Positions 25,747 through 55,616 of a stretch of 64,000 nt of DNA are shown here, one piece after another. The stretch is taken from assembly GCA_046293555.1 (NCBI GenBank), contig JBKBOT010000004.1, positions 1 through 64,000 on the forward strand. Direction: 5' to 3'. The DNA is from Pyrobaculum sp. (GTDB lineage Archaea > Thermoproteota > Thermoprotei > Thermoproteales > Thermoproteaceae). The notes under the pieces were generated by a model, which worked only from the letters and a program-made list of their open reading frames with translations, did no database searches and had not been told where the DNA came from. Numbering within the stretch: position 1 is the stretch's first letter; each line of letters begins with the position of its first letter. Position numbers and translations under genes: made by a program.

Positions 25747-25763
25747 GGTTTACTATGTTAACC
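25747..25763. promoter_or_regulatory. palindromic box GGTTTA-CTATG-TTAACC (nirS/cyt c promoter)
   Basis: Near-perfect GGTTAA-N5-TTAACC centred between two divergent starts; recurs at nosZ and norZ. Confidence 0.7.
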
Positions 25764-25796
25764 ACAAAGATTAAGTCACTGTGTGTAGAGAGCCAC

Positions 25797-27416
25797 ATGG
25801 GCGAGAAAGAGACCAGGAGAGATTTTCTAAAGGCGGCTGCTGCTGCGGGCATAGGCTTCGCAGTGGGGTCATGGGCGCTGGCGTTATCTAGACAAAAGGT
25901 GGTGGTAGAGACTACTGCAGAAAAGGAGACGTTAGTAAGGCCAGAGGTGAGAGTAAAGCCAGAGGTCCACATACAGCAAGCTGCGCCAACTGCGGCGGCG
26001 CCGCCCCATCCGGCTTTTGAAAAACGGGGGCTGGAGTTCCTAAACCCAGAGAATATACAAAAGACGTTAAGAGTTGTCGTGCCGGAGGACCAGCTTCCCG
26101 GCAAGCCAGTTGGCTATAACATAAACGACATAGACTGGATAGCTCTCCTCATCGAGAGTAGATACCACGAGCCGGGGGCCGAGATGGTGGGGTCCTATAC
26201 CTTCCTCGACATGAAGGAGTTTAAGATCTTAAAGCGGGTGAAAAACGCCGGCGATCGCGTCCATGTGGTGCGGTTTGGCAGAGAGGAGTGGCCTGAACAC
26301 AAGAGGCGGTTTGCGGTGGGGATGTCTAGAGACTGCTGGCTCTCTAAGATAGACCTATACTCAATGCAGGTGGTGAGACAGATAAAAATTGGCGTAGATT
26401 GTAGAAGCGCCATCTTTGACAAAGATGGGAAGTACGTAATAGCGGGCTCTAAAGACCCGGGCCACGCCGTGATACTAGATGCAGACACCTTTAAGGTCTT
26501 AAAGGTAATACCGTTTCTAGGCGTCAGTAAGTACTTCCCCACGCCAATGATGGGGAGACAGGGGGCAATACTGGCCTCAGACTTGGGCTACTGGCTTGTC
26601 AACGTGAAAGACGCAGAGATGGTGTTAGTAATTGACTACAGGCAGCCTGACTTCCCCATCGTCCACGTCTTTACTAGTTATGATACAAACAAGAAGGGCA
26701 GCTCGGTGAAAGTAAGAATTGGCGACAAGGAGTATGAGACAACAGGTATTGGCAAAAGCCCCCACGAGCTTAATAAGTTAGATAAGGAGGGTAGATATGT
26801 CGCAGTTACAGGACAGGAGGGCAATACCATATCTATAGTAGACATGAAGACTTTCGAAATTGTTAATACAGTATACTGTGGCAAAAAGCCGCATCCAGGC
26901 CCCGGCACGCTGGTACCTGGAAAATACTTCCTTACAAACGCCATAGCGGAGGGTTTAATCACAGTGATAAACCTACAGACCATGGATGTAGAGAAATACA
27001 TCAAGTATCCAAAAGAGTTCCCGCCAGAGACAGGCGGTGGCCTGTACTCCACCCCGCCCCTGCCTGACGGCAGAGTTCCCCACAACTTGGCGTGGTTTGA
27101 CACCAGCTTCAATATAAACAAGGGCGTATTTGCAGTAGACATTACGTTAATGGACGTGGCCACTAGGCCCCCGGAGCCCGCCGTCTTTGCCCCCAACAAG
27201 CCCGGCAAGTGGGCTATGCATCCCGGACATACCCCAGACGGGAGATATGTGGTGTCTGCCCTCGAGAGGACCGACATGGTGTACAAAGTGGATGCCGAAA
27301 GCGGCAAGATTGTCTCCACCATCGAGCTAAAGAAGGTGGAGCCAGTCCAGCTGGTGGAAGAGCCGAGCCCCACCGGGATATTCCCGTTGTGGCGTATAAA
27401 GGCGCCGTGGTTTTAG
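25797..27416 (+). CDS. nirS: cytochrome cd1 nitrite reductase, d1 beta-propeller domain only
   Basis: Tat signal TRRDFLK; RVHVVR, RD.W.SKIDL, PHE, KPHPGPG, SPTGIF; no CxxCH. Confidence 0.85.
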   Translation: MGEKETRRDFLKAAAAAGIGFAVGSWALALSRQKVVVETTAEKETLVRPEVRVKPEVHIQQAAPTAAAPPHPAFEKRGLEFLNPENIQKTLRVVVPEDQLPGKPVGYNINDIDWIALLIESRYHEPGAEMVGSYTFLDMKEFKILKRVKNAGDRVHVVRFGREEWPEHKRRFAVGMSRDCWLSKIDLYSMQVVRQIKIGVDCRSAIFDKDGKYVIAGSKDPGHAVILDADTFKVLKVIPFLGVSKYFPTPMMGRQGAILASDLGYWLVNVKDAEMVLVIDYRQPDFPIVHVFTSYDTNKKGSSVKVRIGDKEYETTGIGKSPHELNKLDKEGRYVAVTGQEGNTISIVDMKTFEIVNTVYCGKKPHPGPGTLVPGKYFLTNAIAEGLITVINLQTMDVEKYIKYPKEFPPETGGGLYSTPPLPDGRVPHNLAWFDTSFNINKGVFAVDITLMDVATRPPEPAVFAPNKPGKWAMHPGHTPDGRYVVSALERTDMVYKVDAESGKIVSTIELKKVEPVQLVEEPSPTGIFPLWRIKAPWF

Positions 27417-27973
27417 GCAGGGTATACATCGTCGGCGCCGGCCCCGGCGACCCGGAGTTATTAACGGTCAAGGCCCTTTTTCTCCTTCTAACAGCAGACG
27501 TGGTCTTCGCCGCCTCCCTCGTCCCCAGCTCAATTCTCAGCCTAGCTGACGGCAAAGTGGTGAAGTGCGGCCGCCTTACCTCTAGCCGACATGTAGGGCT
27601 GACAGCAAAAGTAATAGAGGAGGCCAAGTCTGGAAAGACGGTAGTGGTGTTAAAAAACGGGGATCCAGTCATATTCGGCCGGGGGGTGGCCATGTGTAGA
27701 GAGATAGAGAAGGCCGGCGTGCCTTGTGAAATTGTGCCCGGAGTCTCCTCCTTCTCTGCAGCTGCGGCGAAGTACAAAATACCCATAACTGAGGGGGGCA
27801 GGCCTCTCCTCCTGACTACAGCCAGAAGTGGGGGGGAGCCAGACGTGGTGGTATTTATGCCTGAACAGAGGGCTGAGGGGCTTGTGGTGGAGGACCTATA
27901 TGGAGAGGGCGAGAGGGCGTATTTTGGGGTGCCACAAAAGACGCCGGCGCTAGTCTTTAAACTAAGGCAGTAA
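27407..27973 (+). CDS. nirE: uroporphyrinogen-III C-methyltransferase (NirE/CobA-like)
   Basis: VGAGPGDPELLT, LKNGDP.IFGRG, IVPGVSS; overlaps the nirS stop; GTG 27407. Confidence 0.8.
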   Translation: MVLGRVYIVGAGPGDPELLTVKALFLLLTADVVFAASLVPSSILSLADGKVVKCGRLTSSRHVGLTAKVIEEAKSGKTVVVLKNGDPVIFGRGVAMCREIEKAGVPCEIVPGVSSFSAAAAKYKIPITEGGRPLLLTTARSGGEPDVVVFMPEQRAEGLVVEDLYGEGERAYFGVPQKTPALVFKLRQ

Positions 27974-28412
27974 TTTTTTTCAACACATTTTTAAAGGTCT
28001 TATATACAGCTGTCTTAGATATCTGATATCTCTCCGCCAATGTGGCCAAGTTGCCTCCATTAGCCATAGACTGCAACACCTCCCTCTGTCGAGGCGTGAG
28101 GAAAAGCTCCCGGCTGTCTAAAGTCTTTATTTCAACCACCTGGTCTTTACTCAAGATCTTTCTCACAGCTGCATTATCGCTCACAATGACTTTAATCCTT
28201 TGGTTTTCAAGTATAGGCCCGCGTAACACATAGCCGGCGGCAAGTAGGCGGTAGAAAACACACTCCTCACATCGCGCCGCCATGACCTCCACGCCGCGGT
28301 GTGTATGTAGGAGGTAGAAAATCTTGTCGCCACGTATTTTAAAACCAACGATGGCCTTCACGTCGGGGGGAAGTTTGTCACAAGGACGTAAAATAACTTT
28401 TAAAAATTTCAT
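27957..28412 (-). CDS. Bat-type (HTH-10) regulator with N-terminal Cys motif, paralog 1
   Basis: LTPRQREVL...LAERYQISKTAVY; Cys11 and CEEC. Confidence 0.78.
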   Translation of the reverse strand: MKFLKVILRPCDKLPPDVKAIVGFKIRGDKIFYLLHTHRGVEVMAARCEECVFYRLLAAGYVLRGPILENQRIKVIVSDNAAVRKILSKDQVVEIKTLDSRELFLTPRQREVLQSMANGGNLATLAERYQISKTAVYKTFKNVLKKITALV

Positions 28413-28581
28413 AGCAATAGGTTATTATCTTTATTTAAATTTTATCTTAAATATATTTTTATAACCTATTACATCTTTATATATGTGAATAGATTTTTAT
28501 GTAAAATTGTGTATATTTATAAATTCCTGTTTTTAACGATTATTTACACAAAAATTTTTATAGCTCTCTTTATTTTAAAAC

Positions 28582-29424
28582 GTGTTGCCCTATTTAGTAT
28601 TGCTAAAGCCTAGAGTAATTTGGCTTTTAATATTGGCGTCAGTGGCTGGGTATATATATGCAACTCCACAAATAGATCCCATACTCTTGTTGTCTTTATT
28701 ACTTGTAGCTTTTCTTTCTACAGGAGGATCTGCGGCCTTTAATCATTACTGGGAGAGAGATATTGACAGCGCCATGACTCGCACCGCCAAAAGGCCTCTA
28801 CCCATGGGCCTTGTGGCGCCGAAAAACGCCTTGACCTACTCCCTAATGCTTTCAGCTGTTGGCGTGTTATGCGGCTTTCTATTATTGGGGCCTCTCCCGA
28901 CATTTTTCGTGGCATTGGGGTGGGTCTTTTATTCTGTAGTATATACGATATTGCTAAAAAGGAGAAGTTGGCTAAATGTGTTGGGCGGCGGCTTTGCTGG
29001 AAACGCCACTTTTCTAGGTGGTTATGCCTTGGGTAAGGGGTATATAGACCTTACAGCCCTGTTGCTCTCTTTTGCGATATATCTCTGGATTCCTTCACAC
29101 ATATGGGCTCTTGCGTATAGATATAGACATGACTACAGAGCCGCCGGGGTGCCCATGTTGCCCACAGTGGTGAGTGAAGGCAATGCAATAAAGATAATCT
29201 CGACGTTAAATATCTTAAGCGCTTTTTACATCCTGTGGCTATATCTCACTCTCGCGGGGGCAGACCACCTCTTTTTGTTAGTGGCGGCAGGCGCCGCGGC
29301 GTCTATATATACAAGCATAAAAGCCCTCATTGAGAAGAGCGACGAGGCGATGTGGAAGATGTATAAAGCCTCTAGCCCCATCCTCATGTTGTTTCTCCTC
29401 GCCCTTATTTTCGCCAAGCTTTAA
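28582..29424 (+). CDS. ctaB: protoheme IX prenyltransferase (heme o synthase)
   Basis: LLKPRV, N..ERDID..M.RT..RPLP, YT..LKRR, H.WALA...DY..AGVPMLP. Confidence 0.93.
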
Positions 29425-30389
29425 GGAAGGGGGATAGGCTTCTGTCTGGCCAGCCTCCAGGCCACATATAGCACCGTGGCGATAGTCAAAACGCCGGCTG
29501 CTGTGATCTGGCCTAATAGCCGTAGGGCAGTTGCGATAGTGGCCAGCGCCAACAGCTCCAGCCCGTAGGTGGGGGCCCCCCTATATAAGACAGAGGGGAG
29601 GAAATAGGGCACGCACAACACGGACATCACCAAGGCGAAGGCCATGTACATAAAGTGGTGGTGTACCCCCGCGAGGGCTATGGCCCATCTAAACGCAAGG
29701 GCCCCCACGCCGTAGGGGTCTCTCACCTTGGGCGGAGCCACGGCGGTTAACACAAGTGACGGCAGTAAGAAGGCCCAGAGGTGCCCCAGCCTAAACGCCA
29801 GATAGGCGGCGACATATGTGGAGGCGAGGGCGAGAGAGCTGGCGAGAGAAAACCTCCGCCTAGCCTTAGAGCTGTCGATACGATATAGCAACGTGTAGAC
29901 TGACGCCAGAGGGTAGGAGGCTATGGCGTCGAGGTGGCTTCCGGCCGTCGGCAGAAATAATAGCCCCGGCACTGTGACGAGATTGGGGACATATGTGGGC
30001 TTCCCCCCAAGGCCCTTTATATATAAGATGGCGTAAGTTAGAGAAAAGGGGAGGTAGGCTATGTACCCAACCCAGTAGGAGACCACGGCGGCGGAGAAAA
30101 ACGCGGCGGCTAGCAGCCATGTGGCTGGCCTTTTGGGGACTGCGTTTATAAATCCCGGCAGCTGTATATACATGACGGAGAAATAGAAGGCCAGAAGCCC
30201 CACTGCCATGAGGTGGGCGTGAAACAAATGGCGACCAGCCACGGCGTCATATATGGCCAGGAGGAAAGATGCGGCGGAGACATATAACGCGATTTGTGCC
30301 GACTTGATTACAGCCACAGTGGCTTTAAAAAAGGCGTGGGGGTTAGACCTCCCGATTTCTAGCCACACGCCGCTTCTCACATGTCTCAT
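29421..30389 (-). CDS. polytopic membrane protein, possibly NnrS-like
   Basis: About 10-12 TM helices; HAHLM..G...LPGF and HHH motifs; start uncertain. Confidence 0.55.
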
Positions 30390-30399
30390 GTACCTGCAG

Positions 30400-30849
30400 T
30401 CACGTCAATAACGTCACGACTTTTCTTAACGCCTTTTTGAAGTGTTTGTAGACCGCCGATTTGGAGACGCCGTATTTATCTGCAACGTCAGACAGACTGT
30501 AGCCGCCGGCCACCTGTCTAAGTACTTCTCTCTGGCGGGGAGTTAGAGTGAGGTCGCTAAGCCGCAGGGCCTCTACTATACGGCCTCTATATGTCTCCAC
30601 CACCTGTCTAACTGCCCTACTGTCTCTCACCACAATCACAACTTTTCTTCCCTCAAAAATGGGGCCTTTTGCCACATATCCCGTGGTGAGTAACCTATAG
30701 AGGGGACAATTCTCACATTTCGCGACGACGATCTTAACTCCAGCCGTGGTTTGCACTATGTGGTACATCTTGCCATGTCTAATCTTGACGCCAATTATGT
30801 CAAACGGAACGGCGTCGCAGTGATTTAATGTGAGCTTCAAAAATCTCAT
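30400..30849 (-). CDS. Bat-type (HTH-10) regulator with N-terminal Cys motif, paralog 2
   Basis: LTPRQREVL...VADKYGVSKSAVY; Cys11 and CENC; clearly similar to 27957-28412. Confidence 0.78.
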   Translation of the reverse strand: MRFLKLTLNHCDAVPFDIIGVKIRHGKMYHIVQTTAGVKIVVAKCENCPLYRLLTTGYVAKGPIFEGRKVVIVVRDSRAVRQVVETYRGRIVEALRLSDLTLTPRQREVLRQVAGGYSLSDVADKYGVSKSAVYKHFKKALRKVVTLLT

Positions 30850-30875
30850 GATATTACTAATCTCTCTCTTTTTAA

Positions 30876-31298
30876 CTAGTGTATATGGATTTCGAGGGTG
30901 GTGGGCGGCGCCTCGAATTGTATCTTGGCGCCGTCGTCTAGACGTATGGCTACTCTTATGGTTCCCTCTACGGCGCCATATATCATGAGGTGGTATGTGA
31001 GGTGTCTAAAAGACGCCGTGCTGAAGGGAGCCACACAGACCTTATCTACAGGCAGCATGGCCACCACAGTGCCGTTAACTACAGTTTTGTGTAACTCCGC
31101 CGTGGCTGTATGTGGTTTTTCCAGCTCGGCGCCTATGATACATCTGGTGAAAGGCGTTGGGTTTACAAAGGTGAAGTATACCATCCCCACGTCTGGCGCC
31201 GTCATGACGTAACTGGCGTCTTTCACATAGGGCCTGGCTAGGCCTATATAGGCGAGGGTAATTACGGCGACTGTCAGCACTATGGCGAGAAGCCGCAT
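30876..31298 (-). CDS. copper chaperone PCu(A)C
   Basis: Signal/TM; ELH-x10-M...YHLM copper-binding motif. Confidence 0.85.
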   Translation of the reverse strand: MRLLAIVLTVAVITLAYIGLARPYVKDASYVMTAPDVGMVYFTFVNPTPFTRCIIGAELEKPHTATAELHKTVVNGTVVAMLPVDKVCVAPFSTASFRHLTYHLMIYGAVEGTIRVAIRLDDGAKIQFEAPPTTLEIHIH

Positions 31299-31301
31299 GT
31301 C

Positions 31302-31652
31302 TTAATATGGCCTTAAAAATATTGCATATGCCATAGCCACCAACGCCACGAGGCCAATAAAGTGGTCTATAGGTATGTCTGTATGGGGGATGTGCCAGAC
31401 GTAGCCCGTGTACATAGATATGGAGAGAGCCAGCTCTCTTGCCAGCAGTAGGAGAAACGCCACGAGGAGCCACCTAAATCTGGGGGTTCTCACCCTCACA
31501 TATCCAGAAATAGCCACGTAGAGCAAAACTGCCGCCACCACCACTGTGGCTGTATGTAACATGGCGTGTCCTGGCGACAGCCCCTCGTGTTTATGTCCCA
31601 AAGAGAGGAGGAGGACGGCTATGGGTATTAGGAAAAACAACAGGCTTCTCAT
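31302..31652 (-). CDS. small His-containing membrane protein
   Basis: 3-4 TM helices with HKHEG, H..H loops; overlaps its neighbours in the operon. Confidence 0.6.
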   Translation of the reverse strand: MRSLLFFLIPIAVLLLSLGHKHEGLSPGHAMLHTATVVVAAVLLYVAISGYVRVRTPRFRWLLVAFLLLLARELALSISMYTGYVWHIPHTDIPIDHFIGLVALVAMAYAIFLRPY

Positions 31653-32443
31653 AGGTCTATTTTTTTAGAGTTGTCGTATATGGCTAAAGCCAACGCGGCG
31701 AGCCACGCCGCGTATATGCCTGAAAACACCACAAAGATCCACTCTGGTCCCATATGTATGACGTATTCCCCCAGAGGCCCTAGAGTTAAGAGGTGGCGGT
31801 CTACAAGCGCCGTGGCTGTAAGCGCCACCAGCTTTATGGGGTTTGCCAGCTGTATGGCCAACAGGGCTTCACTCCCCAGCGGCAGTATGAGGTTTATAAA
31901 AGCCACAACTATGTCGTATATTATGGCCAGCCCCGTCCACGCCACCACCGAGTAGAGAAAAGCCGACTCCCGGCTTTTAGAGATAAGGCCTATATATGTG
32001 CCAAGTAGCGACGCCACCGCCGAGACGGACAAGGTGAAAAAAACGGCGGGGGTCCCCCGCAGTAGGAAATACGGCGTTATGGCCACAAGGGTGTACGCCA
32101 GCGCCAGCGCCAGGTTTGCCACAGCTCTACTCCAGAAATAACCCGCCCTCCCCCAGCTGGAGAGATAGGCCTCCACAAGGCCCTCTCTATCTCCCACCGT
32201 GGAGGCAGTGGAGGCCATCATGGCTATAAAGGAGGCCACCACCGTGAGGAAGTTTATAGAGGTTACCACAGCCGCAAAGCCGCCGCCTAGAGATGCCAAA
32301 GCCACAGAGACAGCCCACCCTAAGGCCAACATGGCGAGATATGGCGGAGTTAAGGCGTCGCGTTTAAGTGTAAATATAAGCAGTTTAGCCATAGCCCACC
32401 ACATATCGCATCTCTCCCCACTTGACACATATCTCGTCCCCAC
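31649..32443 (-). CDS. ABC permease NosY-like (copy 2)
   Basis: Six TM helices, DREG..E..LS motif, ANP; downstream of nosF/nosD-like genes; start uncertain. Confidence 0.7.
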   Translation of the reverse strand: MGTRYVSSGERCDMWWAMAKLLIFTLKRDALTPPYLAMLALGWAVSVALASLGGGFAAVVTSINFLTVVASFIAMMASTASTVGDREGLVEAYLSSWGRAGYFWSRAVANLALALAYTLVAITPYFLLRGTPAVFFTLSVSAVASLLGTYIGLISKSRESAFLYSVVAWTGLAIIYDIVVAFINLILPLGSEALLAIQLANPIKLVALTATALVDRHLLTLGPLGEYVIHMGPEWIFVVFSGIYAAWLAALALAIYDNSKKIDL

Positions 32444-33041
32444 AGGCCTCCAGATACGCCGCCTTGGCTTTCTCCCAGCTGGCCACAGAGGTGACTCTCC
32501 CCTCCTGTATATATATCAAGGTGGGTTTAAGTACCAGAAATGGCGCCGGGTCGTGTGTAGCCAGTATGAAGGGCCTCCCGGCTAGAGACCTAACTAGCTC
32601 TACCCTAAACCTAGTCTCTAGGTAGGAAAGCGGCTCGTCCAGAAGAGGTATTTTATCTAGAGAGGCCGCCACCGTGAGTAAAACCCGCGCCGCCATGCCG
32701 GAAGAAAGCTCCGCCCCCCTCTTGGCGAGAAAGTCCTCTACTCCAAACCTGGGCCTAATGTCCCTCTGGAAGACCTCAGAGAGGTGTTGTAAATACTCCC
32801 CCACAGTTACTGTAGGCGGCAGGCGGGGGGCAGGCGGCAGGTAGTAAAACAGGCCGGGGCCTGCCGGCATGCCGTCAATCTCCACACGGCTCTTACAGCT
32901 ATATACGCCGGAGAGGCAGCGGAGGACTGTGGACTTGCCGCTGCCGTTTGGCCCTAACAACAGGGCGGGGCCGCTCCACCTGGCGTCAAATCTCAGCGAG
33001 AAGCCTCTAAACCTCTTCTCTACCGCCGCGTAAATATCCAT
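32385..33041 (-). CDS. ABC ATPase NosF-like (copy 2)
   Basis: GPNGSGKS, LSSG, LLDEP, ATHD. Confidence 0.75.
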   Translation of the reverse strand: MDIYAAVEKRFRGFSLRFDARWSGPALLLGPNGSGKSTVLRCLSGVYSCKSRVEIDGMPAGPGLFYYLPPAPRLPPTVTVGEYLQHLSEVFQRDIRPRFGVEDFLAKRGAELSSGMAARVLLTVAASLDKIPLLDEPLSYLETRFRVELVRSLAGRPFILATHDPAPFLVLKPTLIYIQEGRVTSVASWEKAKAAYLEACGDEICVKWGEMRYVVGYG

Positions 33042-34180
33042 AACGCCGCCGGCAGTAAGGCAAAGACGGCCAGCCAGCTGGGTTGACGTACGTCCGGCTG
33101 GGGGGTTGGGTCGGCCACGACGGGCCTCCCGGCTAGGGAGTCAATTAGGGCTTTGGCTGGAGATGCGGCCAGAAAGGCGAGGTCTCCCTCTGTGGCTGTC
33201 ATGAGGTCTGAAAAGGCGCTGGAGTATACATAGGGCCTGTCTGACGGGTGGCCGCCCCAGAGGTTGTGTATAAACGCCGCAGTGGCCGCCGCCTCCCCCA
33301 CGCCGCGGTGTAATACAGCCACCACGTTGTCTCTAATGGTGTTGTTGGCAAAAAGGACGCCGGTGCCGTTTCTCCCCCATAGAGTTACCCCAAAGTAGTT
33401 CTCCACAATGTCGCAATTTTTAACTACAACACGTGTGCCGCCCCAGTAGAGGACAAAAACGCCGTGGATATTCCCACGGGAGGTACAGCCGGCCACCTCT
33501 CCCTCTACCTCTGCCAGAAGTAGCCCGTAGCCCTCCGCCCAATTCCTGTTGTCTACCAACGTGGCGTTTTGTAACGTCGCCGCCGTGGTGTACATCAAGG
33601 CGGCTCCCACGTAGTTCTGGCGGGCGTAGAGACCCTCTATAGCCGCCCCGTGGCTAAACATCAGGTGGACGCCATATCTACAGTCCCAAGTCTCCACATT
33701 GCTGATTTTAACCCCCCTGGAGTACTCGACGTATATACAGTCGTGAAAATGTCTAAAAGAGGCCCACGCCGCCTCCACGTTGCTGGAGTTATATAGATAC
33801 AGCCCCACGCCCCTCTTGTATATAGGGAGTCCCTCAAGCCCGACGGCGTTAATACCCCTAATGGCGACATTTGTGGAGTTAAAGACCAGCACCCCCGAGC
33901 TACACCAGAGCTCTAGCCTCTCGACGGTTATATTCCTGCCCACAATTAACATACAGCCGGCTGTGGGCTTTAGCCTATATGCGGTCATAACTGCCGGGAG
34001 CTCTACGGCCACCTCCCCGCCTTTAACCACGGCGTTTTTTAAAACCACGTCGCTGGCGTTTATCACAAGCCTAGAGGCTGTGATGTTTTCATAAACGCCT
34101 GGCTTGTCTATTATAACTACAGCCGCTAACGCCTTAACAGCTATTATACCAGCCAGGAGGAGAAGACCAAGCAGGGCCAT
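33020..34180 (-). CDS. NosD-like beta-helix protein (copy 2)
   Basis: RGVGLYLYN, D.IY, RYGVHLMFS, VGAALMY beta-helix motifs; C-terminal anchor. Confidence 0.85.
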   Translation of the reverse strand: MALLGLLLLAGIIAVKALAAVVIIDKPGVYENITASRLVINASDVVLKNAVVKGGEVAVELPAVMTAYRLKPTAGCMLIVGRNITVERLELWCSSGVLVFNSTNVAIRGINAVGLEGLPIYKRGVGLYLYNSSNVEAAWASFRHFHDCIYVEYSRGVKISNVETWDCRYGVHLMFSHGAAIEGLYARQNYVGAALMYTTAATLQNATLVDNRNWAEGYGLLLAEVEGEVAGCTSRGNIHGVFVLYWGGTRVVVKNCDIVENYFGVTLWGRNGTGVLFANNTIRDNVVAVLHRGVGEAAATAAFIHNLWGGHPSDRPYVYSSAFSDLMTATEGDLAFLAASPAKALIDSLAGRPVVADPTPQPDVRQPSWLAVFALLPAALWIFTRR

Positions 34181-34736
34181 AGTGGAAGTTATTTAAGACA
34201 CATTTATAACTAACCACCTTCCTCACCTCTCCGCTAGGCTTCGGGGGGCTGTAGACATCGCCACCAATGGCTTTAACCCGCCAGGGGCTTGACGCCTCGC
34301 CTCTCTTGTACCTCTCCAGGTTTTGGGGTGCCACAGCCAATATCCCGGTGCCCATAGCGGTGAACTCCGTAGTGACCAAAAGGCTGGCCTCCCGCGCCTC
34401 TATCCATCTGCCCTCCACTCTATCTATCACACAGACTTGTAACACCTCCCCGCCCGAGTTCTCTACTTCTCTATGCCATGTGGCTAGACAGCCCACGTCG
34501 TCAAAAAAATACCACCGCTCTACTCCCCTCAACCTGACTTTCATCGCCGCGGCTGAGGGGGGGTAATCTACCACCATCTTGCAGACTGGACACTCCTCCC
34601 GGCCGAAGACAAGCGGCGGCTCCTCCCCACAGTAAAGACCCCCCTCCCCGCCCCTCAGGCGGGACAATACGCCAAATAACGCCGCCGTCCCCACGAGGCC
34701 TAGGAGGAGGGCGAAAAAAGTGCGGCGGGTTGGCAT
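34134..34736 (-). CDS. NosL-like copper chaperone (Tat signal)
   Basis: TRRTFF; CPVCKM, FDDVGC, TAMG.G. Confidence 0.82.
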   Translation of the reverse strand: MPTRRTFFALLLGLVGTAALFGVLSRLRGGEGGLYCGEEPPLVFGREECPVCKMVVDYPPSAAAMKVRLRGVERWYFFDDVGCLATWHREVENSGGEVLQVCVIDRVEGRWIEAREASLLVTTEFTAMGTGILAVAPQNLERYKRGEASSPWRVKAIGGDVYSPPKPSGEVRKVVSYKCVLNNFHYGPAWSSPPGWYNSC

Positions 34737-36193: not shown

Positions 36194-36379
36194 CTAAGAC
36201 CTGGACTCATGTAGCCACCGCTCGTACCACCGCTCAAAATAATAATAAGCCAGCGCCATCATTCCAAGAACTAGAAATGAGGAGAAGAGCGGCGGGTCGA
36301 AGTGTATAAACGCCACAGCTACGGCGGCGGTCAGTAGAACTACGGCGACTGTTAGAGAAAACCACTTGAGAATCCTCAT
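36194..36379 (-). CDS. small two-TM protein, probable oxidase subunit IV-like
   Basis: MRILKWFSL... ATG overlaps the SoxM stop; two hydrophobic helices. Confidence 0.55.
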   Translation of the reverse strand: MRILKWFSLTVAVVLLTAAVAVAFIHFDPPLFSSFLVLGMMALAYYYFERWYERWLHESRS

Positions 36380-42715: not shown

Positions 42716-42737
42716 ATATTGTGAGATTTCTAACTCC

Positions 42738-45075: not shown

Positions 45076-45076
45076 T

Positions 45077-45947: not shown

Positions 45948-45949
45948 CT

Positions 45950-46426: not shown

Positions 46427-46473
46427 GTGTAAAGAATAGAAAAGTTTATAAATTGAACTTCTTTTTTTATTAC

Positions 46474-48135
46474 ATGTTAAGTCAAAAATTTGTGGTTGAA
46501 GATAAGGTGGCCAAGATTGCGTTGGTGTTTAGCTTTGTGCTCCTGTTGTTAGGGGGGCTTTTTGGCTTTCTACAGGTGATTTCTAGAGCTCCCGGCATGC
46601 CTGCGTTACAGACTGCAGATATTTACTATATGGGCTTGACTCTTCACGGAGTTGCTCTGGCGGTGTTATGGACTGCCTTTTTTATCGTGGGGCTTGCCGT
46701 GTTTGTACTGACGAGAGAACTGGGGCTAAACATGAACGCGCCGCTTCTACTAGGCGGCGCCGTCTTGGCTATCTTAGGTAGCTTGATGGGCGCCGTGGCT
46801 ATACTTTCTGGCCAGGCCTCAGTTCTATATACCTTCTACCCGCCGCTGCAAGCCACGCCGCTGTTTTTCATAGGCCTTGCGGTAGTTTTAATCGGCACGT
46901 GGCTAATTGGCGCCGCTGTGATTGAAGTTTTTCTGAGGTGGCGGCGGCTGAATCCAGGCAAGGAGGTGCCCCTAGGTACCTACGGGGTGCTTACAACCAT
47001 TGTGATCTGGCTTTTAGCCACGCCGCCTTTGGCCTATGCCGTAATTTTCTTCTCTATCCCCATGTCGTTGATGAATGCGCCGGTAGATGTGCTATGGTGG
47101 CGCCTCTGGTTCTGGTTTTTCGGCCACCCCCTGGTTTACTTCTGGCTTGTGCCCGCCATCACGGTCTGGTACGTAGTTTTGCCTAAAGTGTTGGGAACTG
47201 AGGTGTTTAGCAAGACTATGGCTAAGGTCGCCTTTATGTTGTATATCATCGCCTCGGTGCCGGTGGGGCTACACCACCAGTTTGTAGACCCCGGCGTCCA
47301 CCCGGTCTATAAGTATCTACACACCGTGTTGACATATCTAGTGGCTGTGCCGTCTTTCCTCACGGCGCTAAACGTGTTGGCTACTTTAGAGAGGGCAGGC
47401 CGCATGAGGGGTGGGAAGGGGCTCTTTGGCTGGATTGCCAAACTGCCTTGGGGGAAAGACCCGGTCTTTACGGGCATAACTTTTGCCATCATCCTCTTCG
47501 GCATTGCGGGGTTTTCGGGCGTTGTCAACGCCTCCTTTAATGTGAACTACATGGTGCACAACACCGCGTGGGTGGTGGGACATTTCCACCTCACGGTAGG
47601 TGGAGGAATCACGTTGACCTTTATAGCCACCTCGTTCCTACTAGTCCCCCTGTTGTTTGGCAGAGATTACGTCGGCAAGAAGTTATTAATCGCGGTGCCA
47701 GCCCTGTGGTTTGTAGGCCAGCTGATTTTCGGCTTTGCCTACCACCTTGCGGGCATTTATGGCGCCCCCAGAAGGACGTTTCTAGCTGAAGCCGGCTACT
47801 TCCACCAGACGGACCTCCTGCAGTCGTTACATTTTGTCCCTCAGTGGGTTCCACTACTTCAAATTGGGGCTGTGGGCGGGGTTATTTTCGCCATAGGCGG
47901 CGCCTTGTTCATACTGCTAACTTTCGCCACTATAGCTAGAGGCCCTAGGGTACAGCTAAGCGGCGGCGAGGCGTCGCCGGAGCTAGGGCCAGCTGGCTTT
48001 TTAGACAGGCTGGGGCTGTTAGTGCTAATCGCCATAGTGATAATTGTGATTGCCTACGCGCTGCCTGTTGTAGAGATATACAGCAGGGGCTTTTCGCCGG
48101 CGCCGCCGTATTGGCCCACGGGGGCGGCAAGTTAA
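46474..48135 (+). CDS. cbaA: B-family (ba3/SoxB-type) heme-copper oxidase subunit I
   Basis: LTLHG, YTFYPPL, WFFGHPLVY, GLHHQF.DP, HNT.WV.GHFH, PRR. Confidence 0.93.
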   Translation: MLSQKFVVEDKVAKIALVFSFVLLLLGGLFGFLQVISRAPGMPALQTADIYYMGLTLHGVALAVLWTAFFIVGLAVFVLTRELGLNMNAPLLLGGAVLAILGSLMGAVAILSGQASVLYTFYPPLQATPLFFIGLAVVLIGTWLIGAAVIEVFLRWRRLNPGKEVPLGTYGVLTTIVIWLLATPPLAYAVIFFSIPMSLMNAPVDVLWWRLWFWFFGHPLVYFWLVPAITVWYVVLPKVLGTEVFSKTMAKVAFMLYIIASVPVGLHHQFVDPGVHPVYKYLHTVLTYLVAVPSFLTALNVLATLERAGRMRGGKGLFGWIAKLPWGKDPVFTGITFAIILFGIAGFSGVVNASFNVNYMVHNTAWVVGHFHLTVGGGITLTFIATSFLLVPLLFGRDYVGKKLLIAVPALWFVGQLIFGFAYHLAGIYGAPRRTFLAEAGYFHQTDLLQSLHFVPQWVPLLQIGAVGGVIFAIGGALFILLTFATIARGPRVQLSGGEASPELGPAGFLDRLGLLVLIAIVIIVIAYALPVVEIYSRGFSPAPPYWPTGAAS

Positions 48136-48157
48136 AATACCCCTCCCTTTTTTTCCC

Positions 48158-49134: not shown

Positions 49135-49156
49135 CCGCGTTTTTACCGCAGCGATA

Positions 49157-49207: not shown

Positions 49208-49234
49208 AAGTCTTGTGTGACAAGTGGAGGGGGA

Positions 49235-49251
49235 GGTTAATGTGATTAACC
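49235..49251. promoter_or_regulatory. perfect palindromic box GGTTAA-TGTGA-TTAACC (proximal nosZ promoter)
   Basis: 7 nt before TTATAT (49259), which lies 27 nt before the nosZ ATG. Confidence 0.75.
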
Positions 49252-49285
49252 TAAAGGCTTATATGTGTAGTGGTAGGCATGGATC

Positions 49286-51412
49286 ATGAGCCGGGTTAGA
49301 GTTTATGGATCTGCGGCGTCGGGTGGGGGCAAGCCCACGAGGGTCAAGATCTCGAGGCGTGAGGTGATTGCAGGTGTCGGCGGGTTGGCGGTAGGCCTTG
49401 TGGGTGGCTATGCGTTAAGCACTCTCTTGCAGAAAGGCGCCGTGGCGCCGGCGCCGCCTGGCGTGTGGGAAGAGGTACAGAAGATAGCAACTGCGCGGAA
49501 GCTCTCTCCTGACGACGTCACAGCTGCCGTCAAGACCTATCTGCCGGGCACTATGCATGACGAGTTTTATCTATTCTCGAGCGGCGGCCACTCCGGCCAG
49601 GTGGGGGTTATGGGGATACCGTCGATGAAGCTATATCGCATTATTGCCGTATTTACTCCAGAGCCTTGGCAGGGGTGGGGATATCACGACAAGAAGACTA
49701 TGGAGACTTTATTTAGCGAAAGAGCCACTGCCGGCAGGCCGCTGGCGTGGGGTGACACACACCACCCGGAGTTTGATAGACAAAATGCAGAGTATGTAGG
49801 CAGGTGGCTTTTCATAGGCGACAAAGTCCACGGCAGGGCTGCCGCCATTTCTCTATTGGACTTTGAGCCTAAAGACATTGTGAAGATACCAAACGTCCAG
49901 ACTATCCACGGCGGCGCCTTCACTACGCCGAACACCGAATATGTGCTCTACGCCACGCAGTACCCAGCGCCATGGGAGCCCGGGAGGGGGTATAAGCCCG
50001 GCGTGACTAAAGTGCCGTGGTTACAGGTTGTAAAAGAGGAGAAATACTTCTTTGAATATATGAGGGGGGCTCTCACCTTCCTTGCCTTTGATAGAGGCAC
50101 CGGGCGGTTTGACCTCACGAGGAGCTTCCAGATCGAGGTTCCGCCCTACGTCCAGGACTTGGCGACAATTAGCTGGGGTCCCGGCGACGGCTTGGCGTTT
50201 GTAAATTCTTTCGGCACTGAGGGCATGTTCGGCGAGGTGCCTTACGAGGCCAAGTTGTCTAAAAACGACTTTGACCTCCTCCACATCGTGCAGTGGAAGA
50301 AGGCGGAGGAGCTTTGTCTAAAGCAGGGACGTTGTAAGGAGATAAACGGCATTAAGGTGTTATCTCTAGAAGACGCGGTGAGGGAGGGAGTGTTGTTTTT
50401 CGCTAGAGAGCCCAAGAGCCCACACGGCGTGGACACCTCGCCGGGAGGTAATTTCATATCGGTCGGCGGGAAGCTTGCCCCCTATGCCACAATCTACGGC
50501 GCTGAGAGAGTGAAGAGGGCAATTGCAGATGGGAAGTTTGAGGGGAGGGATAGATATGGCGTGCCTATACTAGATTTCGGCTCTATAGTGGCCGGGCAGG
50601 TGGAGGCGTGTCTAGGGCCTCTCCACACGGAGTTCGACGGGAGGGGCAATGCGTATATAAGCTGTTTTGTGGAAAACGTGGTTACTAAATTCTCTCTCGG
50701 CCCTCCAGAGTATAGAGGCGATAAGCCGTTTTCTGTATTAGATAAGGTGGCTATTCACTACAATGTTGGCCATATCTGTGTGCCTGAGTCCAACTCGCCG
50801 AATCCCGCCGGCAAGTATCTAGTGGCTATGAACAAGTGGTCAATTGACCGCTTCATGTCCGCAGGCCCGTTACTGCCGCAAAACTTCCAGCTGATTGACA
50901 TATCTGGCGAGAAGATGAAATTGTTGCTAGATGTCCCCATTGGCTGGGGCGAGCCTCATTACGCCAAGGCGATTAGGTCTGAGAAGCTCAAGCCTCCAGC
51001 TGTATATCCAGTTGGCGCCAATCCGCATGTGATGAAAGGTGGCGAGTTCCAGATAGACCCCAACGCCGTGACTGAGGTGGGGAAGGAGAGGGTTGAGCGC
51101 CGCCAGCTGCCAGACGGGCGTTGGGTCACAGAGGTGTGGGGGACTGTCATCAGATCTACGATAAGGCCCATCATAATTGTGGCAAAGAGGGGAGACTTGG
51201 TGAGACTACATTTAACCAACGTGGAGAAGAGTATAGACGCCACACATGGCCTCGCCATTGCGGAATACAATGTGGCCGCATCTCTAGAGCCTGGGGAATA
51301 TGCGTTAATAGAGTTTGTAGCTGACATACCTGGCGTGTTTGCGTTTTACTGCTACGAGTTCTGCTCGCCGCTTCACCTAGAAATGGTCGGATGGCTGGTG
51401 GTGGAGGAATAA
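49286..51412 (+). CDS. nosZ: nitrous-oxide reductase, clade II-type, with Tat signal
   Basis: SRREVI; SSGGHSGQ, GDTHH, HG, PHG, GPLH, EPH, and CuA motif CYEFCSPLHLEM. Confidence 0.95.
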   Translation: MSRVRVYGSAASGGGKPTRVKISRREVIAGVGGLAVGLVGGYALSTLLQKGAVAPAPPGVWEEVQKIATARKLSPDDVTAAVKTYLPGTMHDEFYLFSSGGHSGQVGVMGIPSMKLYRIIAVFTPEPWQGWGYHDKKTMETLFSERATAGRPLAWGDTHHPEFDRQNAEYVGRWLFIGDKVHGRAAAISLLDFEPKDIVKIPNVQTIHGGAFTTPNTEYVLYATQYPAPWEPGRGYKPGVTKVPWLQVVKEEKYFFEYMRGALTFLAFDRGTGRFDLTRSFQIEVPPYVQDLATISWGPGDGLAFVNSFGTEGMFGEVPYEAKLSKNDFDLLHIVQWKKAEELCLKQGRCKEINGIKVLSLEDAVREGVLFFAREPKSPHGVDTSPGGNFISVGGKLAPYATIYGAERVKRAIADGKFEGRDRYGVPILDFGSIVAGQVEACLGPLHTEFDGRGNAYISCFVENVVTKFSLGPPEYRGDKPFSVLDKVAIHYNVGHICVPESNSPNPAGKYLVAMNKWSIDRFMSAGPLLPQNFQLIDISGEKMKLLLDVPIGWGEPHYAKAIRSEKLKPPAVYPVGANPHVMKGGEFQIDPNAVTEVGKERVERRQLPDGRWVTEVWGTVIRSTIRPIIIVAKRGDLVRLHLTNVEKSIDATHGLAIAEYNVAASLEPGEYALIEFVADIPGVFAFYCYEFCSPLHLEMVGWLVVEE

Positions 51413-51855
51413 GTCGGCGGGTTGTAGTCATGTCTCTTGTCGCCATTGCCTCCGGGGCGGCAGTTTTTTTCCTCCCTCCAAGGAGGGAGAATTCCCCCGA
51501 AATTAGGCTGGGGGTAGATAAATGCGCCGTCTGTCAAATGGTTATTGTAGACAAGAGGTTTGCCGCCGTCTATCGCCATGAGGGGAGGTGGGAGAAATTT
51601 GACGACGTTATATGTCTCCTCCGTTATCTCAAAGAAATTGGGCGGCTTGACGATATTAAAAACGCCTATGTATATGACTACCTCTCTGGAAGGTTGGTAA
51701 AGGCGTCGGAGGCCTATTTTGTCATAACAAAGAAGATACCTACCCCCATGGGCTCTGGAATTGTGGCGTTTATAGATAGAGAACAAGCCGCGGCATATTC
51801 GGAAGACGGGAAGATCTACACTATAGAAGAGCTAGCGGAGAAAGTCTTGCCATGA
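51391..51855 (+). CDS. nosL: NosL copper chaperone
   Basis: CAVCQM, FDDVIC, AYFV, TPMGSG.VAF. Confidence 0.9.
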   Translation: MAGGGGISRRVVVMSLVAIASGAAVFFLPPRRENSPEIRLGVDKCAVCQMVIVDKRFAAVYRHEGRWEKFDDVICLLRYLKEIGRLDDIKNAYVYDYLSGRLVKASEAYFVITKKIPTPMGSGIVAFIDREQAAAYSEDGKIYTIEELAEKVLP

Positions 51856-52406
51856 GGCTGGCGGTAAGGCCCATAGCCCTTGTAGGCCTCGTGTTGATTT
51901 TAATTAGCTACGCCTTCCCCTTCTGGTCTACTTACTTGTCTTCGCCTATATTTGGCTACACCCGGCAGGTATATATCAAGGTGATGTTGGCTGGATATGT
52001 GGATTACACCCCTCCTGACGCCCTCCTGCAGTTAAATATAGCCCATCACTACGTCGGCTTGCCGCCTCTAGAGCCCGAAAAAATGATTGAGCTGAAGCTC
52101 ATGCCCCTTCTGCCGGCTGGGCTTTTTGTGGTCTACCTTCTGTATCTATTTGGCAAACTAAGGCCCAGGTGGCTTCTCTTGGTTACATACCTGGCGCTGA
52201 TAGGCGGCGTGGCTTACTTCCAGTGGTGGCTATATAACCTCGGCCACAGCATAACGCCGGGGGCGCCTGTGAAGATCGAGCCGTTTACGCCAATGGTTGT
52301 GGGCGCGTACCAAATCGCCAATTTCACGGCATTAAACCTCTTAGACGTGGGCTTCTGGCTTCTGGCCATAGCCCCGGTGTTTGCATATCTGGGACGTAAA
52401 AAGTGA
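51852..52406 (+). CDS. nosB: NosB-like membrane protein
   Basis: LN.AHHYVGL, WLY.LGH, AP.KI.PF.P...G..Q.ANF motifs typical of clade II nos clusters. Confidence 0.75.
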   Translation: MRLAVRPIALVGLVLILISYAFPFWSTYLSSPIFGYTRQVYIKVMLAGYVDYTPPDALLQLNIAHHYVGLPPLEPEKMIELKLMPLLPAGLFVVYLLYLFGKLRPRWLLLVTYLALIGGVAYFQWWLYNLGHSITPGAPVKIEPFTPMVVGAYQIANFTALNLLDVGFWLLAIAPVFAYLGRKK

Positions 52407-53704
52407 TTATTTTTTTACTTTTTACAGTCTTTATCTCAGCTGCCGTCATGGTGTCGCCGCCTGGGGGCGGCGCCTATCAACTACCCACGTTTAATTTATC
52501 TCAAGTCCCCCCCGGCTCTAAGGTGTATCTCAGCGGCGTTTTTGCCGGGAGTTTTGTTGTAGATAGGCCGGTGGAGATTGTGGGGCGTGGCGCCGTGTTG
52601 TACGGAAATGGCACAGTGTTGAGAATTGTGGCCAGTGACGTTAGAGTAGCTAACTTAACTATCGCCCGCTGTGGGAGAACCGGGCTGGATTCGGGAATTT
52701 GGGTGGAGAATGCCAGAAATGTGACTATAGTCGGAATATCTATAGAGGAGTGTCTCTACCCAGTTATGGTGTATAACTCCACCGGGGTTAAAATCGTTGG
52801 CTCAAATATAGCAAGCTTTAGGGAAGTACCTAGGGTGACCTACGGCGGGGGGCCGGTGGCTATGCACGAACTGACGCAATACTTCAGGGGGCATGGGGTA
52901 TATGTCTGGTTTTCACGTGGCGTCGTAGTGGAGGGTAGCCGTTTTGCCCACGTGTTAGATGGGGTCTACTGCGACCACGCCTATGGGTTGGAGGTAGTGC
53001 AAAATGTCTTCACGTCGGGTAGTAGATATGCAGTCCACCTGATGTATTGCGAGGGGGTTAACATAGTTGGCAACTCTGTGCGGGATTATGTGGTGGGCTT
53101 TATCCCCATGTATAGCAGCTCTGTGGTTATTAACAAAAATGTTGTAGTCGACATAAGGAGAGTCGGCGGCGCGGCTGTGGTGATTTTTGAAAGCGACGAC
53201 GTGTATATATGCAACAATATAATTACCAGAAATTACCTAGGCGTTGAGCACTTCCGTTCCCCCCTCAGGCCGGGGGGTCGGGTGGTCATTGTAAATAACA
53301 CTTTTCTCTATAATAACATAGCCATAAAGCTAGACTCCTACTCTACCCCAGCCATATATGGAAATTTATTTATAGAAAACATCCGGGATGTGTTGCCGTT
53401 GTTTAACAATGGCGCGTTACTTTACAACGAGAGTTTAAAAATAGGTAACTTCTGGGGGGTTTCACGCGGCGTGTATGTAGCACGGCAGAGGGTATTTGAC
53501 AAACTACTGGCCGACAATCCCCACCTCGAGCTCTTTGTATTAACGCCAGCTTTTACACTTTTGGAACAACTATTTGGCGTGACGTATCCCCGGGGGGGAG
53601 AGCTAGTGGATAAATACCCCATTTCCCGTCAAGTAGACATATCGGCGTTGTATATAGTTGTCGCCATTCTGGCGGTGGTGGCATATGTCTGGAGTAGAGA
53701 TTAA
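52403..53704 (+). CDS. nosD: NosD maturation protein
   Basis: RGHGVYVW, DGVY, RYAVHLMY, GNFW. Confidence 0.9.
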   Translation: MIIFLLFTVFISAAVMVSPPGGGAYQLPTFNLSQVPPGSKVYLSGVFAGSFVVDRPVEIVGRGAVLYGNGTVLRIVASDVRVANLTIARCGRTGLDSGIWVENARNVTIVGISIEECLYPVMVYNSTGVKIVGSNIASFREVPRVTYGGGPVAMHELTQYFRGHGVYVWFSRGVVVEGSRFAHVLDGVYCDHAYGLEVVQNVFTSGSRYAVHLMYCEGVNIVGNSVRDYVVGFIPMYSSSVVINKNVVVDIRRVGGAAVVIFESDDVYICNNIITRNYLGVEHFRSPLRPGGRVVIVNNTFLYNNIAIKLDSYSTPAIYGNLFIENIRDVLPLFNNGALLYNESLKIGNFWGVSRGVYVARQRVFDKLLADNPHLELFVLTPAFTLLEQLFGVTYPRGGELVDKYPISRQVDISALYIVVAILAVVAYVWSRD

Positions 53705-54302
53705 AGTCGCAGACCTGACTTATGCCGTAGGCGGCCATGAGATCTTGAAGAATGTAAACATGGAGATAGACAGGGGGGCATTTGTGGTGGTGACAGGGCC
53801 AAACGGCTCTGGCAAGACCACCTTCCTTAGGTGTGTTGTAGGCGTGTTGAAATGTGAGGGAATCGTGGAGGTTATGGGGAGAGACCCGCGGAGAGATGTA
53901 GAGGTGAGAAGGGGGGTGGGGTATGTTCCACAACTGCTCCCCTTCCCCCCACTCGCCGTGAGGGAGGTGGTGTGGCTACACTACAAGATCTACGGGATTT
54001 CAAACGGCGAGGTGTTAAAAGAGTGGGGGCTGGCGGCTCTGCTCGACAGAAAGGTGGCTAGGCTTTCTGGCGGCGAGAGGCAAAGGCTGGCGTGGGCCCT
54101 CGCCCTATCTCACAAGCCGAGGGTGTTAATTCTCGACGAGCCTTTTAACAACCTAGATGCAGAGGGGAAAAGGTTGGCTTTAGAGAAGTTAAGAGAGTTG
54201 AGAGAAAAGGTGACAGTAGTTATGGCCATACATGAGGCGTATGAGGTGGAGAAGTTGGCAGACGCCGTGGTGAGATTTGAGGGGGGGATGGCGAGGATAT
54301 GA
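53685..54302 (+). CDS. nosF: ABC ATPase NosF
   Basis: GPNGSGKTT, LSGGERQR, LDEP; between nosD and nosY. Confidence 0.85.
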   Translation: MSGVEIKVADLTYAVGGHEILKNVNMEIDRGAFVVVTGPNGSGKTTFLRCVVGVLKCEGIVEVMGRDPRRDVEVRRGVGYVPQLLPFPPLAVREVVWLHYKIYGISNGEVLKEWGLAALLDRKVARLSGGERQRLAWALALSHKPRVLILDEPFNNLDAEGKRLALEKLRELREKVTVVMAIHEAYEVEKLADAVVRFEGGMARI

Positions 54303-55081
54303 TAGTCTGTCTCTTCACGGTGAGGCAGTGGCTTCTCCACAGGTGGGTTTTTTCCTACGCCGCCTCTCTTGTTTTAATACTGCTTTTCATATTCTACACG
54401 GCCTATTTTGGCCTCGCCTGGATACAACCAGAGTTTTACGGCAGGGTGGCCGTGGCTGTAGTCAACGCCGCTCTTTTTCTAGTCTCTCTCTCCGCTCTGT
54501 TGATTCCGCTGTTTGTATATCAAGACGATAGAGAGACTGGGCTTTACGAGTGGTTTATCTCCAGGCCTGTGAGGCGATTTCATCTATGCCGCTGGCTGGG
54601 CGTGGCGGCTTCCCTCTCGGCGGCCACCATTGCCTCCTTCCTCGTCGCCATGTCTCTTAACTACCTGATGTTCCGCCTTTTTGTCTCGCAGATGTTAATA
54701 ATCGCCGCGGTTTTTATGGCCTTAATCTTCTCGCTGTCTGCAGTTAGCTATCTCATCTCCATGGCTCTTCCCGACAAGGCCTCTGCCTTAGGCGCCGGGT
54801 TTTTCCTCTGGCTTTACCTCAATATTATCCACACCATTGTGGCTATGGTTTTTGCCCTGGGGTCCCCTCCAGATGTCGCCTTTGTGATATATGTCCTCAG
54901 CCCCGTGGAGTCCGCCAGATTTCTCAGCTTCTATGTGGTAGACCCCACTCTCTCTTTTTTAAACCCAGTGACGGCGATAGACCTCACGCTCTCGCTACAA
55001 GGCCTCCTCTTTTACCTACCTGTAGCCGTATTGGCAACACCTATTGTGATCGCCCTGGCGGTGTTTCGAACTCTTCCTTAA
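54299..55081 (+). CDS. nosY: ABC permease NosY
   Basis: Six TM helices, DRETG.YE..ISRP.RR, LSPVE. Confidence 0.82.
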   Translation: MIVCLFTVRQWLLHRWVFSYAASLVLILLFIFYTAYFGLAWIQPEFYGRVAVAVVNAALFLVSLSALLIPLFVYQDDRETGLYEWFISRPVRRFHLCRWLGVAASLSAATIASFLVAMSLNYLMFRLFVSQMLIIAAVFMALIFSLSAVSYLISMALPDKASALGAGFFLWLYLNIIHTIVAMVFALGSPPDVAFVIYVLSPVESARFLSFYVVDPTLSFLNPVTAIDLTLSLQGLLFYLPVAVLATPIVIALAVFRTLP

Positions 55082-55574
55082 ATATAGCCCACAGCGCCCT
55101 GGCTAGGTGTCTATATGGACTCTTGTGTTTTTCTAGACATTCCACAAATTTCTTAAACCACGGCGCAATAAAACGTCGGTAGAATTCTCTCCTAAGTTCC
55201 TCCCTGCCGCCTGTGGTGGCGCCGAGAAATTCCAACATGGCTGGGAGGTAGTCTGGTAGCTCCCGCCGTATGTCCATAGTGAAGCCCAGGGCCTTGTAGT
55301 AAGTCAATATTTGGTACATATAGAGGCCTCTCTCCCTGCTGTCTTCCCCCAGGGCGTAGTAGCCGGCATATGGGGGACATCTGGGCGTGAGTTCAAACAT
55401 CTCCACCCTGTGGCTTTCCAGATCTACACCCTCTGCCTCCTCGAGGAAGGCCTTAAGTTCCTCAAGGCCTAGCTCTTCTGCCAGCGTGGAGATCTGTTCT
55501 CTAGCTTGTAGAAATGCCGTGGGGCTGTCCACAGCCCTGGCGGCTATTATGTACAAAACGCCTACCAAATCCAC
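55041..55574 (-). CDS. narJ: nitrate reductase molybdenum cofactor assembly chaperone
   Basis: E.FE...CPPY, ELPDYLPAMLEF, SPY. Confidence 0.85.
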   Translation of the reverse strand: MDLVGVLYIIAARAVDSPTAFLQAREQISTLAEELGLEELKAFLEEAEGVDLESHRVEMFELTPRCPPYAGYYALGEDSRERGLYMYQILTYYKALGFTMDIRRELPDYLPAMLEFLGATTGGREELRREFYRRFIAPWFKKFVECLEKHKSPYRHLARALWAIFKEEFETPPGRSQ

Positions 55575-55599
55575 AGATGTAGAAAAGAGCTATAGATAA

Positions 55600-55616
55600 A
55601 GTTAATGTGGTTAACC
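55600..55616. promoter_or_regulatory. palindromic box AGTTAA-TGTGG-TTAACC (norZ promoter)
   Basis: 7 nt before TTTAAC; same motif as at nirS and nosZ. Confidence 0.72.

Follow-up and report, generated by a model that had tools for sequence, protein, structure and literature searches.

In bacteria, the regulators DNR and NnrR of the CRP/FNR family and NsrR of the Rrf2 family coordinate the genes for nitrite, nitric oxide (NO) and nitrous oxide (N2O) reductases through one palindromic site per promoter. The FNR-type box reads TTGAT-N4-ATCAA, class II FNR-type sites are centered at -41.5, and NsrR carries three cluster-binding cysteines. Among the archaea, a semi-palindrome, CGAAYATDKTYG, is found at nirK, nor and nosZ of Haloferax mediterranei and is not functional at nar; its mutagenesis lowered the activity of the nos and nor promoters (PMC10062603). 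According to a second source, the binder of this motif is still unknown, and the oxygen sensor NarO of Haloferax volcanii is the sole described haloarchaeal regulator of denitrification (PMC11218638). Here we describe a 17-base palindrome, GGTTAAY-N3-RTTAACC, in a Pyrobaculum genome (GCA_046293555.1; G000 below). It precedes the genes nirS, nosZ and nor for the three corresponding reductases in a stretch of 64,000 nucleotides of contig JBKBOT010000004.1 (the window), which also encodes its candidate regulators, the cysteine-bearing LuxR/GerE-type paralogues P0001 and P0002.

Re-reading of the sequence confirmed three 17-mers that the initial annotation had recognized before nirS, nosZ and the quinol-type nor gene (Table 1). 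Each is followed by 7 nucleotides and then by a TATA-like box that starts 26 (nirS), 27 (nosZ) and 31 (nor) nt before the ATG at 25797, 49286 and 55655. The distance from site to ATG is 33, 34 and 38 nt, respectively, with the 7 nt and a TATA-like octamer lying in between. Archaea of this group are known for leaderless transcripts. The spacing of 33–38 nt fits leaderless transcription, and the center of the palindrome would then lie about 42–43 bp upstream of the start, similarly to class II FNR-type sites.

In total, 29 genomes were compared, this one and 28 relatives from the same family; the relatives are kin and several of them are near-duplicates, so that the counts given below overstate the number of independent cases. 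The nor gene was found in 13 of the relatives, nirS in eight and nosZ in three. Conservation in orthologous promoters, which the initial annotation had left to be checked, is evident: of 24 regions upstream of orthologous nor, nirS and nosZ genes, 22 matched at least 10 of the 12 specified bases, in two genera and in the same register. The best match per region was 12/12 in six regions, 11/12 in 13, 10/12 in three, 9/12 in one and 8/12 in one, the last being the nor site of G018, the sole degraded nor site. Random 200-nt windows of this genome reached at least 10/12 in 36 of 4,994 cases. It should be mentioned that nirS of one relative (G007, C1:1531633-1533145) is interrupted by in-frame TGA and TAA codons, yet the palindrome upstream of it matches at 12/12.

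As arranged here, the 27 promoters (three of them from this genome) all have 7 nt between the site and the TATA-like box, and an in-frame ATG follows 33–38 nt 3' of the site in 26 of them, the exception being nor of G018. With promoters anchored on the site, its 12 columns hold 1.63 bits each vs 0.17–0.18 bits in the flanks, the former value being inflated by the choice of the best match in each upstream region, for which the random windows served as a control. Columns that played no part in this choice are conserved as well: A at +19 (23/25), A at +20 (19/25) and TTAT at +24 to +27 in 25 promoters, and these fall at the positions of the transcription factor B recognition element (BRE) and of the TATA box. 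The TATA boxes are weak, with 4–6 of 8 positions A/T in 24 of the 27 promoters. The layout in 27 promoters thus bears out the view that the sites at nirS, nosZ and nor are one cis-element abutting BRE/TATA.

We then turn to specificity within the genome. With a matrix from 22 orthologous sites, all from other genomes, the best three loci of the genome are the nosZ, nirS and nor sites (scores in Table 1), and the next reaches 15.7 bits. When only 12 nor sites from other genomes were used for the matrix, nor (24.4 bits), nosZ (20.8) and nirS (19.1) again took ranks 1–3, followed by a locus of 15.7 bits; with a matrix from eight nirS sites, nosZ ranked first, nor second and the window's own nirS site fifth. 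The pattern GTTAA-N5-TTAAC with at most one mismatch occurs six times in the window vs 1.48 expected (0 of 100 shuffles reached six), and its exact form three times in the entire 1.75-Mb assembly, two of these being the nosZ and nor sites. The nar, oxidase and bc-type promoters of the window gave no match, their best matrix score being at most 2.7 bits vs 16.6–23.8 at the three sites, as had been noticed initially for nar and the oxidases. In particular, the ATG of narG at 57906 is preceded by a separate TATA-like box, TTTTAAT (about 57879), and not by the motif.

The outcome of the genome-wide scan proposed in the initial annotation was mixed: the three sites rank 1–3, but high scores are no more frequent than expected. 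Under a model of independent, identically distributed bases, about 3.9 loci of at least 16 bits are expected per genome and three were seen, so that the motif as such is not enriched. The signal above chance is the placement of the best hits on three promoters named beforehand, their shared register and their conservation. It could be argued from the lack of enrichment, and from the GTTAAC contained in the half-sites, that the similarity arose from promoter duplication or from HpaI-like (GTTAAC) palindromes, with no factor bound there. We consider this extremely improbable, since the flanks share nothing (0.17 bits) and both site and register persist over two genera and before unrelated genes.

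Further genes of the relatives show this layout as well, with a site, 7 nt, an A/T box and a start some 34 nt 3' of the site. It precedes narG in G015, a UbiA-family gene and a gene for a 190-aa membrane protein in G003, and a gene for a NarK-like transporter of the major facilitator superfamily (MFS) in genus g2 (G021, G020 and G024); in G021, the only case in which the next open reading frame (orf) was scanned, this is narI. Other one-mismatch hits in the complete relatives G001, G002, G004 and G007 showed the promoter layout in none of 20 cases. The predicted regulon extends beyond the three genes without leaving denitrification. Accordingly, the earlier suggestion that the site coordinates the three post-nitrate steps holds in so far as nirS, nosZ and nor share it, and is too narrow in that narG (G015), the NarK-like gene (g2) and the cytochrome c gene divergent from nirS have it too.

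Several other sites were noted in the relatives. G026 and G023 retain the palindrome and TATA box of the NarK type (near position 2052/2082), but no orf of 100 aa or more lies 3' of them; together with the retention of the regulator in G023, where nor was not found, this may reflect decay of denitrification in progress. Likewise, no orf of 100 aa or more adjoins a site of 19.9 bits in G017. In G001 a weak palindrome (10.6/11.9 bits) stands in promoter register before a gene for a 375-aa NnrS-like membrane protein (Pfam E-value 5.8e-4, sub-threshold). Two exact matches, at G004:1026017 and G015:C35:15617, fall within long orfs and show no promoter layout; we regarded them as chance. By tblastn, no clear counterpart of the G003 190-aa membrane protein, the NnrS-like gene or the NarK-like gene was found in this genome. 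Its own UbiA-family gene is separated from P0001 by an extremely A/T-rich intergenic stretch of about 170 bp (28413-28581); the counterpart of this spacer in G003 holds a perfect palindrome in promoter register for UbiA.

As to the protein that binds the site, the initial annotation had counted four local helix-turn-helix (HTH) proteins and had seen no homolog of DNR/NnrR. Pfam reduces the former number to two, P0001 and P0002 being the only HTH proteins in the 16–57 kb interval, and the latter observation can be extended to the whole 96%-complete assembly, in which no convincing homolog was found. The HTH_Crp_2 search gave one match there, a 159-aa protein on another contig, at 27.6 bits vs a cut-off of 27, and the Rrf2 search gave one match, to the HTH part only of an unlinked 286-aa protein with a long C-terminal extension, so that no NsrR-like protein was found. 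This 159-aa HTH protein and an HTH/CBS-like protein are the only hits of the CRP/FNR- and Rrf2-type searches genome-wide.

P0001 and P0002 are 43% identical. Both have a C-terminal GerE domain (PF00196; 27.7 and 32.5 bits, respectively, vs a cut-off of 23.5), with helices at residues 107–150 in the structure model and weak profile matches to RhlR and NarL in the PDB. P0002 also exceeds the cut-off of Pfam HTH_10 (29.7 vs 23.1 bits); P0001 has no row for this family at E ≤ 0.001. The N-terminal 100 or so residues belong to no Pfam family, and no receiver or autoinducer-binding module is among the Pfam matches; nor did this domain have a sequence or fold match in the PDB at E < 0.01, and Atlas TM-scores were at most 0.42. 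It is modelled as β-rich (pLDDT, the predicted local distance difference test score, 86.8 for the model). In 17 close relatives Cys11, Cys48 and Cys51 do not vary and His33 hardly does, and Cys11 and Cys51 are invariant over 28 wider members. The family is small, with 31 cluster representatives at E ≤ 1e-10 among 1.84 billion, in records of Pyrobaculum, Infirmifilum and Desulfurococcales, annotated as 'hypothetical', 'LuxR family' or similar. A word-index protein search matched nothing beyond the query. Pyrobaculum is listed among the archaea with LuxR-type proteins (PMC5413776).

A homodimer was predicted with an ipSAE interface score of 0.80 vs 0.00 for the best control, a score attained by 20 of 30 proteins whose solved structures are pairs and by one of 23 whose structures are single chains; LuxR-type HTH dimers have already been solved, and part of this score may come from likeness to them. 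At least 93% of the contacts were shared across runs, with a partner pLDDT of at least 87. The prediction lends support to a dimer, which would fit a palindromic site.

The distribution of the family follows that of denitrification. It is present in 15 of the 29 genomes, namely in 13 of the 15 with nor or nirS and in two of the 14 with neither, and in all 11 genomes that have both regulator gene and nor or nirS on one contig the distance is at most 3.1 kb. Two denitrifiers are without it. In G022 the contig stops 33 nt past the nor site, on the side on which members of genus g2 carry the regulator gene. The other, G018, is 99% complete and is the genome with the degraded nor site.

A further link is provided by the symmetry of the promoters. 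The nirS palindrome is located midway between two divergent starts, with 33 nt to the ATG of nirS and 34 nt to that of the cytochrome c gene, and on the cytochrome side an A/T box again stands 7 nt from its edge. The same was revealed at nirS orthologues, with the cytochrome start 33–35 nt from the site and an A/T-rich box at a like distance in eight genomes. The nirS protein consists of the cytochrome d1 domain only (Pfam), and the P. aerophilum nitrite reductase is described as being without haem c (PMC9500659); therefore co-expression with a separate cytochrome c makes sense. In G021 and G020 (translation checked) and in G024 (by layout) the regulator itself is the mirror partner of nor: its start is 32–33 nt beyond the edge of the palindrome that faces away from nor, and a TATA box stands 7 nt from that edge ahead of the regulator gene. 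In the window, at 55574-55600, a TATA-like run, TTATCTATAG, touches the far edge of the nor palindrome directly, vs the 7-nt spacer elsewhere, and the first start codon of the narJ-like gene is just 25 nt from the palindrome.

It is conceivable that the palindrome is real and is bound by an unlinked regulator, the cysteine-bearing LuxR-type proteins controlling, e.g., cytochrome or copper-cofactor genes. Both paralogues here indeed lie among genes for haem and copper maturation, neither is preceded by the motif, and G017 keeps the protein and its UbiA neighborhood without nor or nirS. We nevertheless regard this as quite unlikely: the phyletic match and tight linkage of the family to nor and nirS, the mirror promoters of genus g2, the joint lack of the protein and of an intact site in G018, and the failure to find in the genome a CRP/FNR-type or cluster-bearing Rrf2-type candidate all speak against it. 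The linked family is the most likely binder of the palindrome.

What the comparison establishes is the site itself with its register, its conservation and its confinement to promoters of denitrification genes. Our preferred reading, which we hold to be probable, is that a denitrification regulon has GGTTAAY-N3-RTTAACC as its operator and that a homodimer of the linked family, P0001 and/or P0002, binds it and activates transcription. A homodimer of this family would occupy the palindrome directly against the BRE and help transcription factor B (TFB) and the TATA-binding protein (TBP) onto weak BRE/TATA elements, by which nirS with its divergent cytochrome c gene, nosZ and nor would be switched on. 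At sites with another TATA box 7 bp beyond the opposite edge, a single dimer could serve both directions. Activation is suggested by the position of the site upstream of the BRE and by the weak TATA boxes. As for the signal, one may guess that NO, O2 or the redox state is read by the conserved Cys/His residues.

The same operator and protein could also act in repression, the bound dimer blocking access of TFB to the BRE (e.g., under oxic conditions) until a signal releases it. This finds some backing in the fact that the BRE begins exactly where the site ends, and in the far-side TATA-like run that abuts the G000 nor palindrome directly. Archaeal activators usually bind upstream of BRE/TATA, and repressors mostly overlap the TATA box or the start site. 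The site here lies wholly upstream of BRE and TATA, the boxes are weak (4–6 of 8 positions A/T in 24 of 27), and the mirror arrangement with the gene of the regulator itself is in keeping with positive feedback; repression therefore appears unlikely to us.

Several points weigh against activation by the linked family, besides the kinship of the genomes, the way in which the sites were chosen, the missing enrichment and the solved LuxR-type dimers dealt with above. A site that touches the BRE could serve repression as well as activation. P0001 has Tyr33 where the family has a near-invariant His, and there is no motif 5' of P0001 or P0002 in this genome. G017 and G023 retain the family protein without nor or nirS; since the G017 copy is the one closest to P0001 and shares its UbiA neighborhood, P0001 may serve another regulon. 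Finally, the family tree leaves the correspondence of P0001 and P0002 to the single copies of the relatives unsettled.

A more far-reaching proposal can be made only tentatively: the family may be a new, Thermoproteota-restricted class of metal or Fe-S sensors of gas or redox state, combining an orphan Cys3(His) domain with a LuxR-type HTH. One dimer would activate two mirror leaderless promoters through TFB on both sides, with feedback on its own gene, and the system would be an independently arisen counterpart of DNR/NnrR/NsrR.

Compared with the known regulators, the system differs from DNR/NnrR and NsrR in that its site is not an FNR box, its promoter is an archaeal leaderless one with BRE and TATA box, and its candidate regulator joins a LuxR-type HTH to an orphan sensor domain. 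With the H. mediterranei motif it shares an archaeal host and a common occurrence at nir, nor and nos promoters; it differs in sequence and phylum, in having a candidate binder, and in position, the site starting here 50–55 nt before the ATG (G000) vs 66–79 nt for the haloarchaeal motif. NarO is reportedly small, with N-terminal cysteines and a C-terminal HTH. The system resembles it in concerning an archaeal denitrification regulator. Of the two paralogues, P0002 alone is above the cut-off of HTH_10, the family holding the bacterio-opsin activator. A tblastn search of P0002 against plasmids gave no Haloferax among the best 25 of 166 matches, and all those listed had E ≥ 5e-3 and covered mostly the HTH part. 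Bacterial regulators of the NarL/FixJ/GerE type have the same HTH class and bind inverted repeats as dimers, as is predicted here; unlike them, the candidate is without a receiver or autoinducer domain, and its N-terminal domain is without a PDB match at E < 0.01. Thus, the present system is outside the DNR/NnrR, NsrR and H. mediterranei types, since sequence, promoter type and candidate protein differ. No description of the motif or of the role of the protein was found in the literature searched, a search that left Cozen et al. 2009 outside. That study is said to predict an NO-responsive transcriptional regulator in P. aerophilum, and may already name this protein or motif.

Table 1. Operators, promoter elements and genes discussed in the text, with their positions in the window.
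Feature	Position	Strand	Description
Operator 1, GGTTTACTATGTTAACC	25747-25763		17-bp imperfect palindrome between nirS (+) and divergent cytochrome c gene (-); 21.0 bits
Operator 2, GGTTAATGTGATTAACC	49235-49251		perfect 7-3-7 palindrome 5' of nosZ; 23.8 bits, top locus of the genome
Operator 3, AGTTAATGTGGTTAACC	55600-55616		5' of quinol NO reductase gene; 16.6 bits (24.4 with nor-only matrix)
nirS spacer and TATA-like box TTAAGTCA	25764-25778	+	spacer ACAAAGA, 7 nt, purine-rich, BRE position
nosZ spacer and TATA-like box TTATATGT	49252-49266	+	spacer TAAAGGC
nor spacer and TATA-like box TTTAACGC	55617-55631	+	spacer CAAGGGA
Mirror spacer and A/T-rich box CTAAAAAC	25732-25746	-	divergent cytochrome c gene
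Divergent c-type cytochrome gene	25119-25712	-	heads minus-strand run including cytochrome c assembly gene (Pfam)
nirS	25797-27416	+	cytochrome d1 nitrite reductase (Pfam)
Tetrapyrrole methylase orf	end at 27973		3' of nirS
P0001	27957-28412	-	candidate regulator paralogue 1, 151 aa; Cys-bearing orphan N-domain and GerE/LuxR HTH
P0002	30400-30849	-	candidate regulator paralogue 2, 149 aa; inside second nosD/nosL/PCuAC-type cluster
nosZ run	49286-55081	+	nosZ, nosL, unassigned orf, nosD, ABC ATPase, 260-aa orf (Pfam)
nosZ	49286-51412	+	nitrous oxide reductase (Pfam)
narJ-like gene	55041-55574		opposite orientation to nor
nor	55655-57829	+	quinol-type NO reductase (Pfam)

The genes from nosZ through the 260-aa orf presumably form a single operon, and narG and narH stand directly 3' of nor (Pfam). 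Between the denitrification loci are two haem-copper oxidase sets (36376-39079 and 45950-48135) and a Rieske/cytochrome b set (42681-45075), none with the motif. A second copper-handling cluster occupies 29421-35425 on the minus strand, with two NosL-like proteins, a NosD-like protein, an ABC ATPase and PCuAC; P0002 is embedded in it, and no motif is found upstream.

Next to nothing is known of how archaea regulate denitrification, the literature covered naming one haloarchaeal regulator and one haloarchaeal motif without a known binder. A precise operator, a small regulon and a candidate regulator with an uncharacterized sensor domain make the present case testable with a 17-mer and a protein of 150 residues. 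The mirror-image design of the promoters offers a clean system for studying how an archaeal activator recruits TFB and TBP, and knowledge of the operator may help to predict the release of N2O by hot-spring archaea.

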